Source: Gemmatimonadota bacterium (lineage in GTDB: Bacteria; Gemmatimonadota; Gemmatimonadetes; Gemmatimonadales; GWC2-71-9). Taken from it: a DNA stretch of 64,000 nucleotides. The number at the start of each line of letters is the position of its first letter. The stretch's first letter is position 1. Location: assembly GCA_039588295.1 (NCBI GenBank), contig JBDHAB010000002.1:143663-207662 (forward strand), written 5' to 3'. Shown piece after piece: positions 33,001 through 39,000 of this stretch. Position numbers: made by a program.

Positions 33001-36000
33001 GGTTCACATTCGGGTCCAAGTTCGTAGAAGAACGTCAATGCAGGAGAAGCGTGCGGCAGGGCCGATGGCTAGAGTAATCCACGGATGAGGCAATCCGAGT
33101 GAACCAGAACCACAGCGACGAGCCCCGTCAGGCCGACATGTATCCGGCTAGGCCACCGATGCGCTTGGGACTCGCCATTACAGAGCACTGCAATCTCCGC
33201 TGTCCACATTGCATCCGTGACGACGTGACGACGGTTCGCTCTCTCGAGACCGAGCTGATAGCCTCAATCGTGGATCAGGCGAAGGCGCTGTACGGCTCCG
33301 TGGTCGTCAGTCTCACCGGGGGAGAACCTCTACTTCATCCCGAGTTCGCAAGGATCGCTGATATCTTCGTGGAGCGCGCCGTTCCGTACCGATTCGTCAG
33401 CAACGGATGGCACGTGAACCGGATCGCGCGGATCGTGCGTCGCTGCGCGCCTCAAGCGGTGCGGCTGAGCCTCTCCGGTGCCACGCCAGAGACCCATGAT
33501 GCCGAACGTGGCGACGGGAGCTTCCATCGGGTACTCCGGAGTCTCGCCGTGCTCACGAGCGAGCAGATTCCTTGCGACCTGTCGATGGTGATCGATCGGC
33601 GCAATCGACACGAACTCGAGGTGGCGGCCGACCTAGCGGAGTCATTGGGATGTCTCAGTATCAGCTTCATTCTGCCCCAACCGACGCCGGGGAGCGCCGA
33701 GCGGGACAGCGATCTGCCTCCAGATGCTTGGTTGCCGACCAAACGTGCGCTGGAGAACCTGGCACAAGAACCCGGACGGCAGTCACGAGTGAGGATCGAC
33801 TACGGTTATCCATTCGACGGCCCCGAGACTCCGTGCGAGACGTTCGCTCTCCAAAGGATCTACGTGGACACGCGTGGGCGGGTTTGCACGTGCTGTCAGC
33901 TGTCGAACTACGGCTTTACGGAGACGGAAACGGTCGCGGACTTACACACCACATCTCTTGCCGAGGCGCATGACCTCTACGTTACGCGGCTCGAGGCATT
34001 GCGCCAAGCACAGCAGCCAGACTCCGCAGCACCACACCTGAGCGATCCGTTTCCGTGTATCCGGTGCGCTCGAGCGAGCGGAAAGCTCGGATGGCTGGCG
34101 GACTTCCCCCAGTCCGCATGGCACGGAGCGGCACGCCAGCCAACCAAGGTCACGCCAGCCGCATGAAGCGTTTGCCGCAAATCGCCGTCGGATGTCTTGC
34201 GGCCGTTCGGACCCCGTTCTGGATTCACGGGCCACGTCTGGAGACGCTCTTGACCGGGCCGGCAGATTCCCACCAACGGTCCGGGAGTCCCGGAGTCGCG
34301 ATCAGGGTGTCTCGACTAGCCCTGCGGATGCTGGGCCGGCTCCCGCTGTTGCCCTGGCGGAACACGTGCCTCTATCGAAGCGTCGCCGAGTGCTTGGTGC
34401 TTCGGAGCTACGGAATCGGGTGCCGGTTACAGGTGGGGGTCAAGCGTGCCTCGTCGGCCCCGGACTCGATCGACGCGCATGCGTGGGTCCTGCGAGATGG
34501 TGAGGATCTCGGCAGCGCCTCACACACGCTCCTTCGACCCAGCCCGTGACGACCTCCGCTAGCACCGCTCACTGAGGAGTGGGTTCGCCTCAGTACTCTA
34601 TGCTGGGGCACTCAACGCGGCGAGCGAGCACCGGAGCTGTTCCCGTAGAGGGCTTTCCTTCCACCCGCTCGTCGGTGAAGGACGTGATTTCGCCCCTCAG
34701 ATCCTGGCCCTCGATATGAAGCGTCATACTCACACCGGCCAGTGCTCCGGGGTGACCGATGAACAGCGAATCTCCGGCCACGAACCGCCAGTAGTTGAAC
34801 GGGTGATCCCAGGCCCGACCCTCAGTGATACTGTGCGCCACGAACACGGTGCCGTACTGTTGCACTAAGCTCGGCCAAACCGTCAGCTTCGCGGTGTCGA
34901 GCTTGACGGTGGGTGCACTACCCCAGGCGGCGCGTTGCCGCTCTGCCTCCGGTCCCGGTTCGCCGGACCAGAACTCCAACTCATAGCAGCCCGCGACCTG
35001 TTCCGGAAGCGGCAGGCGATCTCGTTGGGTGTTCGACGCAGAACAGCCTCCGACGGCCGTCCACAGTGCCGACAGCATGAGCGAGGCAGACCTTGCTGCG
35101 TGCATCCCGAGCCTCTGGCTATTCGAGCACGCCCGCGGCCCGGCGCGGCGCGCCCGTGCCGGTGGGTATCTCGACCGTCGCACTTGGATCCGCGGGGTCG
35201 AGCCAGCGAAGGGTGGGCGTGTTCCCGATCCATGCCGTGTACACGATTCGACCGTCCGGCAGCCACGCAGGCTCGCCGTCGGCGCCCGGACGATCGGTGA
35301 GCTGTGTCAGAGCCATGGTGTTCAAGTCCAGGAGGAACAGCTCGGTGTCTCCGGTGCTGTCCGATGCAAACACGACCGATTCGCCGTCCATACTCCATGC
35401 CGGCTCCACCGCTGCCGTGTTGCTGAGGACGAGGACTGTGGGCGTCCCTCCGGGGATCTGTAGGGTGAAGACGTCGGCCGTGCCGTTCGTGGTGGAGACG
35501 AACACCAGCCGGTCTCCCGAGGGACCCCAGCTCGGCGATGCCTCCACCGACCCGCCAGTTCCGAACCCTACCGTGACAGCCTGAGCGTTGCTCCCGTCTG
35601 CCTGCACGGTCCAGAGCTTGAACACTCCGGTTGGGTTCGCGGTGTAGGCGATCTGACCACCACCCGGCGTGAGGGCTGGCTGTATCTCACTGTCGGCGGT
35701 GTCCGTCAGCCGGACAGCCGGGCCACTACCATCCAACGGCACCGAGTAGAGCTCGGCGTTGCCGTCCCGGAAGCTGGTGAAGACGATGGTCCCTCCCGCG
35801 GCCGTCGGGTCCTCATCATCAGCCGCTGCGTCGGTGAGAGATTCGAGACCGTCTCCATCAAGGAACATGCTGTAGATATCACGGTTGCCGTTCAGCAAGA
35901 GATCGAATACCACTCGCGGCGGGAGAGCGATTTCCAACACACGTGTACCCATCACGATGCTACGAGCCTCGATCTGCGCTTCGGCTTGGAGCGTGACGGT

Positions 36001-39000
36001 TCCCGCACTCAAGAACGTGACTCGGCCTTCGGAGAGAAACTGCAGCAGGTTGGGTGGTTCTGCGGTCCACTCGATTAGGGAATCGGCGACCGGCTCGCCC
36101 TCGAACACGACGCGCACCTGCGCCGTCGAGCTCCGCTCGATGCGACCGTCGATCTCGATCTCCAGCACAGGAACAGGGCCCGTCGCGTCACAGCTCGTCA
36201 GTGCGGCTGTCAACGCGACAGGCCCGAGAACGCGCCATGGCGACACGAGTGGCCCTCGGCTTACCGCCGCCGGTCGGGACGAAGCAACGTGATTCGGCCC
36301 TCCTCATCCACCCCGTAGAGCGGCCCCTGCCACATATCATCGAGGAGCTGCAGCTGGGTGGCATCTGCCACAGGCGCTCCGAGGGCGGGCGGTGCGCAGA
36401 ACGGGCAGGTCCATGTATCCCAGCCTGAGGCGGCAACCGTGTAGCCCATGTCAGCTAGCGCTTTCACGGTCACCTCGCTGAGTGGTATGGGAGTCATGGG
36501 AGCTTCAATGAAGCCCGTCATGAGCTCGTCATTCAGCACCGACTCACGCCAGTGCCCGCACCTTGTCCCAGGACCAAAATCATTCTCGACCGGCACCTTG
36601 TTTCCAACGTAGGTGCCACCACCGTTGCTGTTGAAGGCAGCAATCGCGAGCGGCCCGTTGAAGTAGGGGTCAGTCGTGAGCGGGGGCGGCGGGTCATCCG
36701 CAACCGGGAAGCAATCAGTCAGTAGGCCATTGTCGTCGGACAGCAGTCCCATGCTGATCCACCTAGACGTGCCCATGCCCAGCACGTGCCCCATCTCGTG
36801 CAGGACCACGTCTCCAAACTGATTGTTCGCCTCCATGTTGGCCACGTCTGCGGTGTCGAACGTCATGACTCCATAGATCGGGAGCCCGCCCGTTGTCCGG
36901 ACAAAACAGGGACCCGCACTCCCGAGGATATTCCCGGGACCGTCGATACTGTCGAGCACAGCATTGATCGCCAAGTCATCGACGATCTCATCGATCGGCA
37001 TCCCACACTCGTTGCCGCCCCACGTGAGCAAGACGGGAGATAGATCCCCAGTGATGAGGCTCTCCCAACGAGCCGCGGCACTATTGAAGGCGGCCTCTTG
37101 GCTCGCCGTCATGGGAGTCAGGAAGTGAAGCTCGATCTGAAAGCCCGCAACGAAGGGGTTCACGGTGATGCGCGAGGTCCCGTCGGCCTCTGGGCCGCCG
37201 GTCGACCCGATAATGTCGACCACCCCGTCCGACACAGCCGTGACCACGCCCGTGCTGGGATCAACGCTGGCGATTGACGGATCTGAACTCGTCCACGTGA
37301 CTGTGCCGCCAATGTCCCGATCGACGACATCACGGACCGTCGCGCTCAACGGAATAGTCGCCCCACCGACAGTCGTGAACCCCGAACCCGGGGTCACATC
37401 GACATATCCGTTCTCACCCCACACATCAGCATCGACGAAGACGGTGAATCCGAACGTGGTTACGGAACTGGGCACGTCCCATATCCACGTCTTCGGTGAA
37501 GTGGTGCCGTTCGCCGGAACGTATTCGAGATACTCAAAATACGGCTGGTTTGATCCGGTGAAAGTCCCGGTCCCATCCGCGTTATTCACCGTAACCGTAC
37601 CCGTTCCGCTCGTCACGTTGGGTCCGGTGTGGTGGAACACTCTGACTCCGGTCGTCGTGATCCCCCCGTCCGGACTGCCCAGCCCCTGAGTGATGAGGTT
37701 TGTGACTGTGACGTCGGCTTGGAAGAACTGCGACCCGTCGTAGCTCACACTGCTCGACGTGAGCGTAACATACTGATTCTGGCCACCGAGAATCACCCGT
37801 TGCGGACCCGGTTCGGTCTCACCAGCGACCACTGAACTCGGCCCGCACGAGATCTCACCCGCTGCCACGTGCGCGGTACAGGTTAACGACGCGACGACAT
37901 TCCGGTTGCGGGCAGGTTCAGTGACTTCTTCCTTCGTCACTTCCTCCGGAGAGGTCACGGGTATGTCGTCCATGCACGCCACGACCAAGAACGGCAGCGC
38001 GAGGAAGACGATGAGGCGATTCACGGTCGCTAGGTTGCCGCGCATCTTTCGTCCCTCCAGATCAGGCGATCCAGGAGTGTCTTGGAGTCGCAACACCGAC
38101 CCCTCGACGTCACTACGGACGCATCGGGAATCGCAGGTCGGCGCGTTTGCAGAACTCGATTCCAGTTGCCAAAAAACAGCCCGGTGGGCCGGATTCGACC
38201 GACCTAGAAGACGCTGCTGCCGCCGCCCGGGTTACCGGTACCGGGGATCGGACTCCCAGTCTGCAGTGTGAGATCGGTGAGCCTCGGCAACTCTCGAAGC
38301 TCCGGCACGACCCATGGCTTTCGACGTCGCCCGCTACCCTGTGTTGCGACCTGTGCCACATCGTCGTCATGCTGCATGACGAGCCTCCAGCAGGATACTG
38401 AGGCTTACATATGCACCACCGGTCTCTGCGCGTCAAGCGCGTGTCGGGGGCACGCCGCATCTCCTCGATCGCCGCTGCATGCACATGAAGGCCGCCGCCT
38501 CAGGCTCCCACCCACCACGACTTGACACGCGACCCCACTCCACCAATATTCCCCATATGAAAAGAATTTTTCGGATACACGCCCATGACTGATCCGGCCA
38601 GCCTGAGCCGTCGCGAGCGGGAGATCATGAACATCGTCTACCAGCTGGGCGAGGCCGGGGCCGCCGAAGTCGCCCGGCGGATGGCGGACGATCCGGGCTA
38701 CGACTCGGTGCGGGTAACGCTCGGCATTTTGGAGAGAAAGGGCCACGTGAAACATCGGAAGGACGGCCGACGAAATGTCTATTATCCGACCGTCCCTCGC
38801 GAACGGGCGACGAAGAATGCCGTCAAAAACCTTCAGAAAACGTTCTTCCGCGGGTCTCCGTCCAAGGCGATCCTGACCATGCTGGACATGTCCTCCGCCC
38901 GACTCACTCAAGCCGAGCTGGACGAGATCGCCCAGTGGATCGAGAAGGAAAGGAAGTTCAAATGATATCGTACCTGGCCGCGTCGATCGCCGCCGACCTC

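Follow-up and report, generated by a model that had tools for sequence, protein, structure and literature searches.

Lasso-type leader handling, a radical SAM enzyme and lipoproteins in what looks like an undescribed peptide-maturation system of Gemmatimonadota

Main finding

A Gemmatimonadota genome and its relatives carry what looks like an undescribed peptide-maturation system. The gene-level evidence for lasso-type leader handling combined with a radical SAM (rSAM) enzyme but without a cyclase is good, and the explanation we favor, with somewhat better than even confidence, is that the product of this cyclase-less system works with lipoproteins sharing an N-terminal domain (N-domain). The genes in or near the cluster of the window, by which we mean the whole 64,000-nt stretch of DNA analyzed, are listed in Table 1; an ORF check placed the rSAM, B2 and peptide genes as in the initial annotation.

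Table 1. Features of the cluster and its surroundings (positions in the window)
Feature	Position	Strand	Evidence
Second PD40 beta-propeller protein	31989-32906	-	Pfam PD40 4.6e-28
rSAM enzyme	33099-34166	+	Pfam Radical_SAM E 1.6e-22
Lasso-type B2 (transglutaminase-like Cys protease)	34163-34549	+	NF033537 50.1 bits vs cut-off 33; Transglut_core3 6.6e-13
197-aa protein of unknown family, probable lipoprotein signal	34590-35183	-	Orthologue position in other loci
Lipoprotein, Big_2-like region and PD40 (TolB-like) beta-propeller	35119-36246	-	Pfam PD40 8e-23
Lipoprotein: lipobox, N-domain, Big_2, leishmanolysin-like region	36261-38096	-	Pfam Peptidase_M8 8e-9, Big_2 9e-9
Terminator-like hairpin and T6	38177-38193	-	2 overlapping sites
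57-aa precursor-like peptide	38204-38377	-	ORF; paralogues; invariant columns

A family of precursor-like peptides

The 57-aa peptide, whose ATG has a GGAGG 6 nt upstream (38384-38388), begins with a variable N-terminus, continues with the leader-like W-x2-P-x-L-x2-LPRLTDLTL and ends in the core-like QTGSPIPGTGNPGGGSSVF. It matched no Pfam or NCBIfam model, precursor models included. All five paralogues reported earlier were recovered from the genome (E 2.3e-35 to 3.6e-12), with nearly identical tails, and the next match (E 0.0116, window about 61710-61829) is broken by in-frame stop codons. The hairpin and T-run lie directly 3´ of the TAG stop of the peptide gene, ahead of the lipoprotein gene; the hairpin count is unremarkable (2 overlapping sites, with an average of 2.8 in shuffled versions of the 6-kb region) and the placement alone is notable, and no clear T-run was found at the other four paralogues.

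The initial annotation counted 78 homologues; our searches likewise revealed a sizable family, with 52 matches using a word index and 300 cluster representatives using an HMM against 1.84 billion proteins (E<=0.001), nearly all of the latter being 41-101 aa long with the matched part at the C-terminus. Family peptides are ~45-60 aa and share the segment W-x2-P-x-[LVI]-x2-LP[RK]L-x-[DE]-LTL, behind which comes a short Gly/Pro-rich tail of variable sequence, in most cases with [ST]-V-F at its end. Our alignment of 46 homologues has 16 invariant columns, the number noted before for 24 sequences. This pairing of a conserved leader with a short, variable tail is as in RiPP precursors. Position +1 is occupied by Gln, Ile, Leu, Val, Phe, Ala or Thr, the aligned homologues show no conserved acidic residue at +7 to +9, and the C-terminus varies (VF, VIP, FP, CFG). 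The earlier description of the leader as lasso-type stands with regard to spacing, given that W(-17), P(-14), L(-12) and T(-2) fit the Tyr-17/Pro-14/Leu-12/Thr-2 positions listed for lasso B1/B2 recognition (PMC10368454), but not with regard to specificity, as a W/YxxP motif is also described for PqqD and a sactipeptide RRE (PMC12710340).

Genes for probable leader handling and tailoring

The B2 ORF extends from 34055 to 34549 (+), though its probable start is the ATG at 34163, which shares sequence with the stop codon of rSAM. This is the only B2 gene in the genome, and 8/8 orthologues retain both the Cys of WRNTCLYR and the His of AHAWV. PqqD (67.3 bits to Pfam), an HprK-like kinase and an NTP_transf_5 gene (55.2 bits) are located on contig C35. 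The best solved match of PqqD is the lasso B1 protein TbiB1 (5v1u, E 6e-11), with weak matches also to the PqqD-like partners of the ScmF/ScmE and GeoRSP systems. For the kinase (g02986), the previously noted Walker A motif and weak HPr-kinase likeness were both seen: the sequence contains GDARSGKST, and a profile of seven orthologues matches HPr kinase 1ko7 over the P-loop (E 8e-5), with a match to TIGR04352 (E 1.1e-6) that, at 27.9 bits, is below the cut-off of 200. A lasso-cluster kinase is described as phosphorylating Ser3 with the help of B1 (PMC10368454).

The rSAM enzyme has the motif CNLRCPHC at residues 31-38, a position that leaves it without a fused N-terminal RRE, and its C-terminal part is rich in Cys and SPASM/twitch-like; C246, C265, C266, C320 and C323 are invariant in 12 orthologues. 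None of the NCBIfam models listed reaches its cut-off. Among these, the SynChlorMet and GeoRSP enzymes, for which no chemistry is known, include the best match (ScmF, 98.7 bits, with ScmE and GeoRSP matches at 71.4 and 64.9 bits), but all are far under 400-bit cut-offs and the matched region is confined to the rSAM core, residues ~24-197. Of the solved structures, PqqE (6c8v, E 2.7e-8) matches best in sequence, the nearest solved folds are BlsE, SuiB, PqqE, anSME and SkfB, and the predicted model is closest to peptide-modifying SPASM/twitch enzymes.

An rSAM enzyme without a fused RRE together with a separate PqqD protein is also the arrangement of the PQQ (PqqA/D/E) and mycofactocin (MftA/B/C) pathways, and MftC is the second-best NCBIfam match listed. 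Nevertheless, the scores are far under the cut-offs (MftC 84.4 of 265 bits, PqqE 48.1 of 381 bits), the peptides have neither the Glu...Tyr nor the Val-Tyr substrate motif, and B2, a kinase and lipoproteins are present here. The C-terminal Val-Phe is reminiscent of the Val-Tyr of MftA, but C-terminal decarboxylation is argued against by a C-terminus that varies and is not free in the fusions described below.

Clusters in other Gemmatimonadota

Elsewhere in the phylum, peptide, rSAM, lipoprotein, Big_2/PD40 lipoprotein, PqqD, B2, kinase and NTP_transf_5 genes are clustered, with all eight types found in L020/L054, L044, L053, L093 and L109. The four leader-handling and tailoring genes that had been reported near the peptide complete the cluster in other species, although some clusters (L027, L028/L059 and L055) are full except for B2. 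The Big_2/PD40 lipoprotein is a conserved member, its orthologue preceding PqqD in L017, L020, L023, L027, L028, L044 and others, and the orthologue of the 197-aa protein, which matched no Pfam or NCBIfam model, comes after the M8-type lipoprotein in L016, L037, L043 and L058. Membership of the second PD40 protein is uncertain; its gene is divergently oriented to the rSAM gene, and by own-genome comparison it is a weak paralogue of the Big_2/PD40 protein. No exporter gene recurs across the clusters in a crude family count, as the initial annotation had also found for this one.

The rSAM gene directly follows the peptide gene in 18 of 30 loci of other species (14 of 32 in the earlier count). 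Among metagenome peptide genes followed by 700 nt or more of sequence (n=61, many on near-identical contigs and hence not independent), rSAM lies within 2-43 nt downstream in 46, an N-domain lipoprotein is next in 13 and neither is found in two; the same cut in species genomes (n=29) gave 16, six and seven, respectively. One or the other gene is therefore next in 59/61 and 22/29 cases. Among 251 genomes of the phylum, the peptide and the rSAM orthologue each occur in 22, with 21 shared, although these counts overstate independence given that the sampled genomes are kin (15-19 genera). B2 is present in 21 of the 22 peptide-bearing genomes (at most ~6 kb from rSAM in 13) and the N-domain in 19.

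Lipoproteins adjoining, and fused to, the peptide

The M8-type lipoprotein, with a probable start at the ATG at 38045 (GGAGGG upstream), has the lipobox LVVAC, an N-domain predicted as a ~160-aa beta-sandwich (about 37377-37919) and a metalloprotease region with HEMGH; its AF2 model has a pLDDT of 84.6. Six other lipoproteins of the genome share the N-domain (47-71% identity), and the aligned N-domain lipoproteins have two nearly invariant Cys near the N-terminus. All five peptide copies adjoin such a lipoprotein, and these neighbors (334-768 aa) have widely different C-terminal domains, some protease-like. Peptides and lipoproteins do not pair strictly one for one, because N-domain genes outnumber peptide genes (9 versus 5 in this genome and 15 versus 2 in G106).

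Three species of one genus have nine genes in which the peptide continues in frame into an N-domain lipoprotein's signal peptide, with the identical junction GGSTVF-GLLLAAGLLFGIGAC. The fused peptide segments of G102 are 85-88% identical as protein and only ~80% as DNA, with mature parts 37-45% identical, a pattern indicative of purifying selection acting on the peptide in these fusions. We know of no precedent among RiPP precursors for an 800-aa fused 'follower'. Secreted neighbors had been raised as an argument against a RiPP role; they are instead a core co-occurring part of the system.

No lasso cyclase gene near the peptides

The reported lack of an Asn_synthase gene near the peptides extends to 104 related loci (0/30 and 0/74), and tblastn with the four Asn-synthase homologues of the genome gave no match in any of the 30 other-species loci. 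Genuine B2-adjacent cyclases of the phylum score only about 200-350 bits against an NCBIfam cut-off of 525, making exclusion by score alone impossible. An ordinary lasso system with its cyclase encoded elsewhere, for example by the C159 homologue, in which the initial ~100 positions of the model for Asn-synthase are missing, or on C16, is nonetheless very improbable: the lasso cyclase model finds nothing at E<=1e-60 in 15 of the 22 genomes that carry the peptide, the C159 homologue has a PqqD, a kinase and a candidate peptide of its own beside it, residues +1 and +7 to +9 do not fit, and the fused tail runs on into a signal peptide.

A proposed route and its alternatives

In the route we propose, PqqD would bind the WxxPxL stretch and present the peptide, and rSAM, having no RRE of its own, would modify the tail by H-atom abstraction; our best guess is epimerization or a C-C cross-link at the invariant Ile/Val, for which a free C-terminus is not needed. 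The kinase, perhaps followed by NTP_transf_5, may modify a hydroxyl, the likeliest one being that of the near-universal Thr/Ser at +2. B2 would cleave after Thr(-2)-Leu(-1), and no macrolactam would form. The matured peptide and the N-domain lipoproteins could act together, the peptide being a ligand, partner or membrane-delivered module and probably not a free lasso-like antibiotic. Adjacency, co-occurrence and clustering agree with the earlier proposal of a new rSAM-tailored RiPP, but a simple free RiPP leaves the lipoprotein fusion unexplained; given the lipoprotein/rSAM adjacency and the selected in-frame fusions, the product is probably tied to lipoprotein biology.

Alternatively, the peptides could be small proteins with an accessory or regulatory part in lipoprotein operons, such as a signal-peptide extension acting in trans, with rSAM, PqqD and B2 acting before export on the lipoproteins or another target. 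Enzymes of the anSME type act on sulfatases in this manner. The N-domain lipoprotein beside all five copies of this genome, the signal-peptide extension in one genus and the conserved Cys pair would all fit, as would the same-genus genome G109 (96% complete), which keeps a peptide-lipoprotein pair but in which rSAM, B2 and kinase were not found. The tight peptide-rSAM spacing, an rSAM enzyme without its own RRE, the precursor-like leader and tail, and a motif described as bound by PqqD-type RREs (PMC12710340, PMC10368454) make this reading unlikely.

We consider it similarly unlikely that the product is bacteriocin-like, with the pairs as toxin-immunity cassettes and the lipoproteins as immunity or receptor proteins. 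Lipoprotein LanI proteins do provide immunity to lantibiotics, the lipoprotein gene follows the peptide gene directly or after rSAM, and several satellite pairs occur per genome. Yet five nearly alike tails stand beside lipoproteins that are large, sometimes protease-like and widely different at the C-terminus, no exporter recurs, and a toxin fused to the signal peptide of its own immunity protein is hard to explain.

Relation to known systems

Among the closest known relatives of the favored maturation system are lasso pathways in which B1 and B2 are split and a kinase (K) and a nucleotidyltransferase (N) act in tailoring (paeninodin, pseudomycoidin, BsfA). Both they and the system here have a discrete PqqD-type B1, a B2 Cys protease, here above the family cut-off, an HprK-like kinase, an NTP_transf_5 gene and the same leader spacing as given in PMC10368454 and PMC8498205. 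They differ in that no related locus here has the Asn-synthetase-like cyclase, +1 is not restricted to Gly/Ala/Ser/Cys, the Asp/Glu at +7 to +9 is not conserved, the C-terminal residue is Phe or Pro rather than Ser, the precursor gene has an rSAM gene immediately next to it, and lipoproteins, not an ABC exporter, are core members.

Two further systems show partial similarity. In the maturation of the quinohemoprotein amine dehydrogenase gamma-subunit (QhpC/QhpD), an rSAM/SPASM enzyme acts on a small peptide that has a leader, and this peptide later becomes the partner of exported proteins that include a beta-propeller; most peptides here are without the Cys, Asp or Glu cross-link residues, a dedicated exporter and a subtilisin-like protease are missing, and homology was not detected, though no dedicated test was made. 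Enterococcal sex pheromones resemble the fused forms in that a peptide lies within a lipoprotein signal peptide, but they are C-terminal fragments of ordinary signal peptides and carry no modification, whereas the peptides here have a long N-terminal extension with an RRE-binding motif.

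Organization of the peptide locus in the window and the source genome

In the window, minus-strand genes for a short precursor-like peptide, an adjoining lipoprotein, a Big_2/PD40 lipoprotein and a 197-aa protein converge on a plus-strand pair encoding a radical SAM enzyme (rSAM) and the lasso-type Cys protease B2, whose start is probably the ATG at 34163, overlapping the rSAM stop codon (see table). The peptide gene has a GGAGG 6 nt 5´ of its ATG and a hairpin plus T6 directly 3´ of its TAG stop. Four paralogues were found in the source genome, on contigs C7, C9, C20 and C57 (E 1.3e-18 to 3.6e-12); the next-best match (E 0.0116) lies in a frame interrupted by stop codons, in agreement with the five copies, and no sixth, counted in the initial annotation. 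Its gene-level observations also held: the rSAM, B2 and peptide genes are present in the window, and contig C35 carries genes for PqqD (a discrete, B1-like RRE), a P-loop HprK-like kinase and, convergent, an NTP_transf_5 protein. The window B2 is the only one in the source genome. Divergent from the peptide gene are a BlaI-type repressor and a BlaR1-like M56 sensor with HEAT repeats (38585-40671), a pair with no homologue at any related locus searched; these are probably unrelated neighbours.

Features of the window and of the C159 contig (locus L141) of the source genome
Feature	Position	Strand	Basis or remark
PD40 beta-propeller protein	31989-32906	-	window ORF and Pfam
Radical SAM enzyme	33099-34166	+	Pfam Radical_SAM, E 1.6e-22
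Lasso-type B2 protease	ORF 34055-34549	+	NF033537, 50.1 bits (cut-off 33)
197-aa protein, no known family	34590-35183	-	window ORF
Big_2/PD40 lipoprotein	35119-36246	-	window ORF
611-aa lipoprotein, Big_2 and leishmanolysin-like region	36261-38096	-	window ORF
57-aa peptide	38204-38377	-	window ORF
C159 HprK-like kinase	L141:13328-14386	-	TIGR04352, E 4.5e-11
C159 candidate 43-aa peptide with YIAPAV	within ORF L141:14403-14636	-	
C159 PqqD	L141:14551-14829	-	
C159 Asn-synthase homologues	L141:14920-16809 and 16816-18831	+ and -	divergent from PqqD, peptide and kinase genes

A peptide family with a constant front and a variable tail

A word-index search returned 52 peptide homologues, and an alignment of 46 has 16 invariant columns (M1, W22, P25, L30 through G41, and G48), the number noted initially. 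Against 1.84 billion representatives, an HMM of the family gave 300 matches at E<=0.001, 75 of them at E<=1e-10; the best 150 of the 300 are nearly all 41-101 aa long, with the match reaching the C-terminus. One 398-aa "cluster member" among the distant variants proved unrelated. Throughout the wider family the fixed segment is W-x2-P-x-[LVI]-x2-LP[RK]L-x-[DE]-LTL-[Q]-[TS]-G, while the tail varies in length and sequence (for example QTGDPVPGDEGVF, QTGSGIPGGG...STVIP and Cys-bearing forms on Longimicrobium contigs). A constant front and a variable tail are typical of RiPP precursors. No NCBIfam precursor model matched the window peptide. In open-access PMC and bioRxiv texts we found no description of the family or its cluster, and none of three 7-letter motif strings occurs in a paper there.

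Numbered from a predicted cut after Thr-Leu, the Trp at -17 puts Pro at -14, Leu at -12 and Thr at -2. This is the lasso-type leader spacing claimed initially, and these aromatic, Pro, Leu and Thr positions are described as required by lasso B1 and B2 in an excerpt of PMC10368454. PqqD and a sactipeptide RRE use the W/Y/LxxP motif too, according to a portion of PMC12710340, and the motif thus points to a leader bound by an RRE, not to a lasso peptide specifically. After the cut, Thr or Ser at +2 is near-universal, and the tail is invariant in having a beta-branched Ile/Val that follows x-P and [VI]-[FYI] close to its end. Most tails are without Cys, Trp and Tyr. On four Longimicrobium-type contigs (L030, L032, L036 and L114), where the rSAM gene is still next, the tails have two Cys, such as ...PIGCGSSTVCG and ...GDCDDNNPSSCFG, and a ring closed by a thioether or disulfide could form in these lineages.

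All five peptide genes of the source genome end in TAG, and on C20 a lipoprotein ORF follows in frame directly after the peptide stop. Read-through into the lipoprotein was rejected, since the window pair is out of frame and TAG is the stop in just 21 of 32 orthologues (TGA in 7, TAA in 4; a crude genome-wide proxy is ~40% TAG).

The peptide and rSAM genes are adjacent and co-occur

Scanning species genomes turned up 30 loci, of which 28 are from Gemmatimonadota lineages and one is from "Bacterium HR33", which belongs to the same family as the source genome. The recurrent order is peptide, rSAM, one or more lipoproteins sharing an N-terminal domain (N-domain), a Big_2/PD40 lipoprotein, PqqD, B2 and the HprK-like kinase, in some cases with a divergent NTP_transf_5 gene before the peptide or a convergent one after the kinase. 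Among the 29 peptide genes with at least 700 nt of downstream sequence, the next gene encodes rSAM in 16, an N-domain lipoprotein in 6 and neither in 7; for two further peptide genes, on short genome contigs, rSAM is also next. The 74 metagenome loci, collected with a narrow, less variable peptide alignment, hold 61 such peptide genes, followed by rSAM in 46 (gaps of 2-43 nt), an N-domain lipoprotein in 13 and neither in 2, although these cases are not independent because many of the contigs are near-identical.

Across a sample of 251 genomes of the phylum, the peptide and an rSAM orthologue (E<=1e-40) were each detected in 22, and 21 genomes have both, counts that overstate independence because the genomes are kin (15-19 genera). 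The exceptions are G098, which has only an rSAM (40% identical), and G109, which has only the peptide. A close rSAM cluster in the Atlas is labelled Acidobacteriota. B2 is present in 85 of the 251 genomes. All but one of the 22 peptide genomes have it, and in 13 of these 21 it lies within ~6 kb of rSAM. Three genomes flagged as unpublished (G057, G157 and G182), none among the 22, are included in the tallies for B2 and for the cyclase and contribute to no other result.

In G109, a 96% complete genome of the same genus, an intact peptide, an M8-type lipoprotein and the 197-aa protein are encoded at L058 (contig C62), and no rSAM, B2 or HprK-like gene was found in that genome. Two clusters are decayed: in L055 (G127, contig C1) the rSAM match extends no further than residue 216, where it meets the end of the Big_2/PD40 gene, and in L053 (G059, contig C10) several genes have frame breaks, with a second copy on C8.

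The enzymes and a proposed maturation pathway

The CxxxCxxC motif of rSAM (CNLRCPHC) is at residues 31-38, indicating that the enzyme has no RRE of its own. In the C-terminal Cys-rich part, C246, C265, C266, C320 and C323 are invariant across 12 orthologues, and the AF2 model (pLDDT 81.4) is nearest to BlsE, SuiB, PqqE, anSME and SkfB. By motif and model, rSAM is of the rSAM/SPASM(-twitch) maturase type, with an auxiliary-cluster domain of reduced form, as the Pfam SPASM model itself failed to match rSAM. B2 exceeds the cut-off of the lasso leader-peptidase model, with Cys and His invariant in 8 of 8 orthologues; a third triad residue is not clearly conserved among them. The C35 PqqD scores 67.3 bits with Pfam PqqD, over the cut-off, and falls under the cut-offs of the lasso-specific models (58.3 vs 70 and 52.6 vs 80); its best solved relative is the lasso B1 protein TbiB1 (E 6e-11). 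For the C35 kinase, an orthologue profile matches HPr kinase 1ko7 (E 8e-5) across the GDxxxGKS...LSDD motif, and the score with TIGR04352 is 27.9 bits (cut-off 200). A homologue of the Lnb-type lipoprotein N-acyltransferase adjoins the C35 NTP_transf_5 gene (L015:12014-13384; Pfam Lnb_N 83.4 bits); it has no homologue in any other related locus searched, and we therefore treat the adjacency as coincidental.

We propose that PqqD binds the WxxPxL segment of the peptide, that rSAM would then act on the tail, that the kinase, perhaps with NTP_transf_5, would modify a hydroxyl, with Thr/Ser at +2 the best candidate, and that B2 would cut after Thr(-2)-Leu(-1). rSAM and the peptide are linked here by the adjacency and co-occurrence of their genes. 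Lasso-cluster kinases phosphorylate a C-terminal Ser or Ser3, and an N protein adds hexose onto the phosphate, as portions of PMC8498205 and PMC10368454 describe. The P-loop and LSDD of the kinase here match HPr kinase; the peptides have no C-terminal Ser.

For rSAM, epimerisation or a C-C cross-link at the invariant Ile/Val and [VI]-[FYI] is favoured over a mycofactocin-like decarboxylation, and a free peptide C-terminus would not be required. Cys pairs at comparable places in some variants may be a hint of a macrocycle. Mycofactocin-like oxidative decarboxylation was rejected as the general chemistry since the C-terminus varies and is internal in fused forms: the mycofactocin precursor ends in Val-Tyr with a free carboxylate, whereas the peptides here end in Val-Phe or otherwise. 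rSAM scores 84.4 bits with the MftC equivalog TIGR03962, far under the cut-off of 265.

The peptides are paired with, and in one genus fused to, a family of lipoproteins

The proteins adjoining all five peptides of the source genome, and two more nearby, have in common a ~160-aa domain after the lipobox (47-71% identity), followed by C-terminal parts that differ (metalloprotease-like, Big_2 or propeller-like repeats). This N-domain (37377-37919 in the window) has no Pfam or NCBIfam model. It is predicted to fold as a beta-sandwich (pLDDT 84.6); Foldseek against the PDB gave no match at E<=0.001, the likeness to beta-sandwiches of the CBM2/CBM3 type being weak. Of the 251 genomes, 25 encode the N-domain, among them 19 of the 22 with the peptide, and the source genome has nine copies. 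Two proteins encoded downstream of the peptide-lipoprotein pair on C20 (L013:5136-8540) have YadA-head repeats and a Peptidase_S74 (endosialidase chaperone) domain and resemble trimeric fibres or adhesins.

Nine genes in three species of genus g26 (G102, G256 and G257), one of them at L051:3972-6437, encode the peptide and an N-domain lipoprotein as a single in-frame fusion. The fusions have a variable N-terminus, then W-x2-P...LP[KR]LT[ED]LTL-LSPIGGGGG[IT]GGSTVF, then GLLLAAGLLFGIGAC (hydrophobic region and lipobox) and the N-domain. These were revealed by the genome searches; the word-index database gave no longer fused homologue with the window peptide as query, which is weak evidence. Between the three G102 copies, identity over the peptide segment is 85-88% for protein and ~80% for DNA, against 37-45% for the mature parts, indicating purifying selection rather than recent copying. 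The contig with the G102 rSAM cluster is 3 kb long and ends within the rSAM gene; an unfused peptide may lie upstream of the cluster.

We argue from the pairing and fusion that the peptide would act with the lipoproteins at the membrane. The initial reading, lasso-type leader handling with an rSAM, stands at the level of gene content, order and co-occurrence and is incomplete as to role; the shared N-domain and the fusions were missed in it. Tentatively, the peptides could be small partners of surface lipoproteins matured in RiPP style (as subunit, as anchor or ligand, or as a module within the signal peptide) rather than free natural products, with the rSAM, the lasso-type RRE and protease, and the kinase serving lipoprotein biogenesis or function; the g26 fusion would then be the "Rosetta stone" of the partnership. 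It is unlikely that the peptide is not the rSAM substrate and that the enzymes act on the lipoproteins instead, a reading hard to square with the RRE motif that the peptide carries and with the gap of 2-43 nt between its gene and that of rSAM. A bacteriocin-immunity system would account for the peptide-lipoprotein pairing but seems equally improbable given tails that are near-identical, lipoproteins that are large and diverse, and the fusions. So tight a tie to one lipoprotein family, extending to in-frame fusions, would be unusual for any RiPP, and could indicate a role for peptide maturation enzymes in surface-lipoprotein biology. With a 57-aa peptide and five soluble enzymes, the system is testable.

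The lasso cyclase is missing from the clusters

The hallmark of lasso systems, an Asn-synthetase-like macrolactam cyclase encoded with the precursor and B genes, is absent here: as the initial annotation had stated for related loci, tblastn with the four Asn-synthase homologues of the source genome gave no match in the 30 genome or the 74 metagenome loci. The peptides also differ from lasso cores, in which the isopeptide ring is formed between Gly/Ala/Ser/Cys at +1 and Asp/Glu at +7 to +9; if the cut follows Thr-Leu, residue +1 is Gln, Ile, Leu, Val, Phe, Ala or Thr, and the aligned tails have no conserved acidic residue at +7 to +9. The lasso cyclase model NF033535 (E<=1e-60) matched 89 of the 251 genomes and just 7 of the 22 peptide-bearing ones. 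The four homologues score 173-299 bits against its cut-off of 525, but the B2-adjacent cyclase-like genes of the phylum also score only ~200-350 (one of two matches over the cut-off is from a genome flagged as unpublished), and the case therefore rests on adjacency and absence, not on bit score.

If the gene-level reading is true, lasso-type leader recognition and removal have been re-used with an rSAM in the place of the cyclase, and the outcome would be modified peptides of a new class, from a phylum with an almost unexplored chemistry; an excerpt of an Antarctic soil survey names Gemmatimonadota for NRPS/PKS and terpene clusters only (PMC8692599). It would also be a concrete case behind a general remark in a section of the RRE-Finder paper (PMC7470986), where ~300 of the proteins retrieved by the model for discrete lasso RREs have rSAM enzymes alongside and were counted as false positives; the present system is probably among these, undescribed there.

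A cyclase encoded in trans, for which the initial annotation had pointed to the C159 Asn-synthase homologue, is very improbable, as that homologue sits with its own PqqD, HprK-like kinase and candidate peptide, the cyclase model is unmatched in 15 of the 22 peptide genomes and the related loci gave no Asn-synthase match. No B2 is encoded near the C159 genes, which form a second RiPP-like locus in the source genome (L141:13328-18831).
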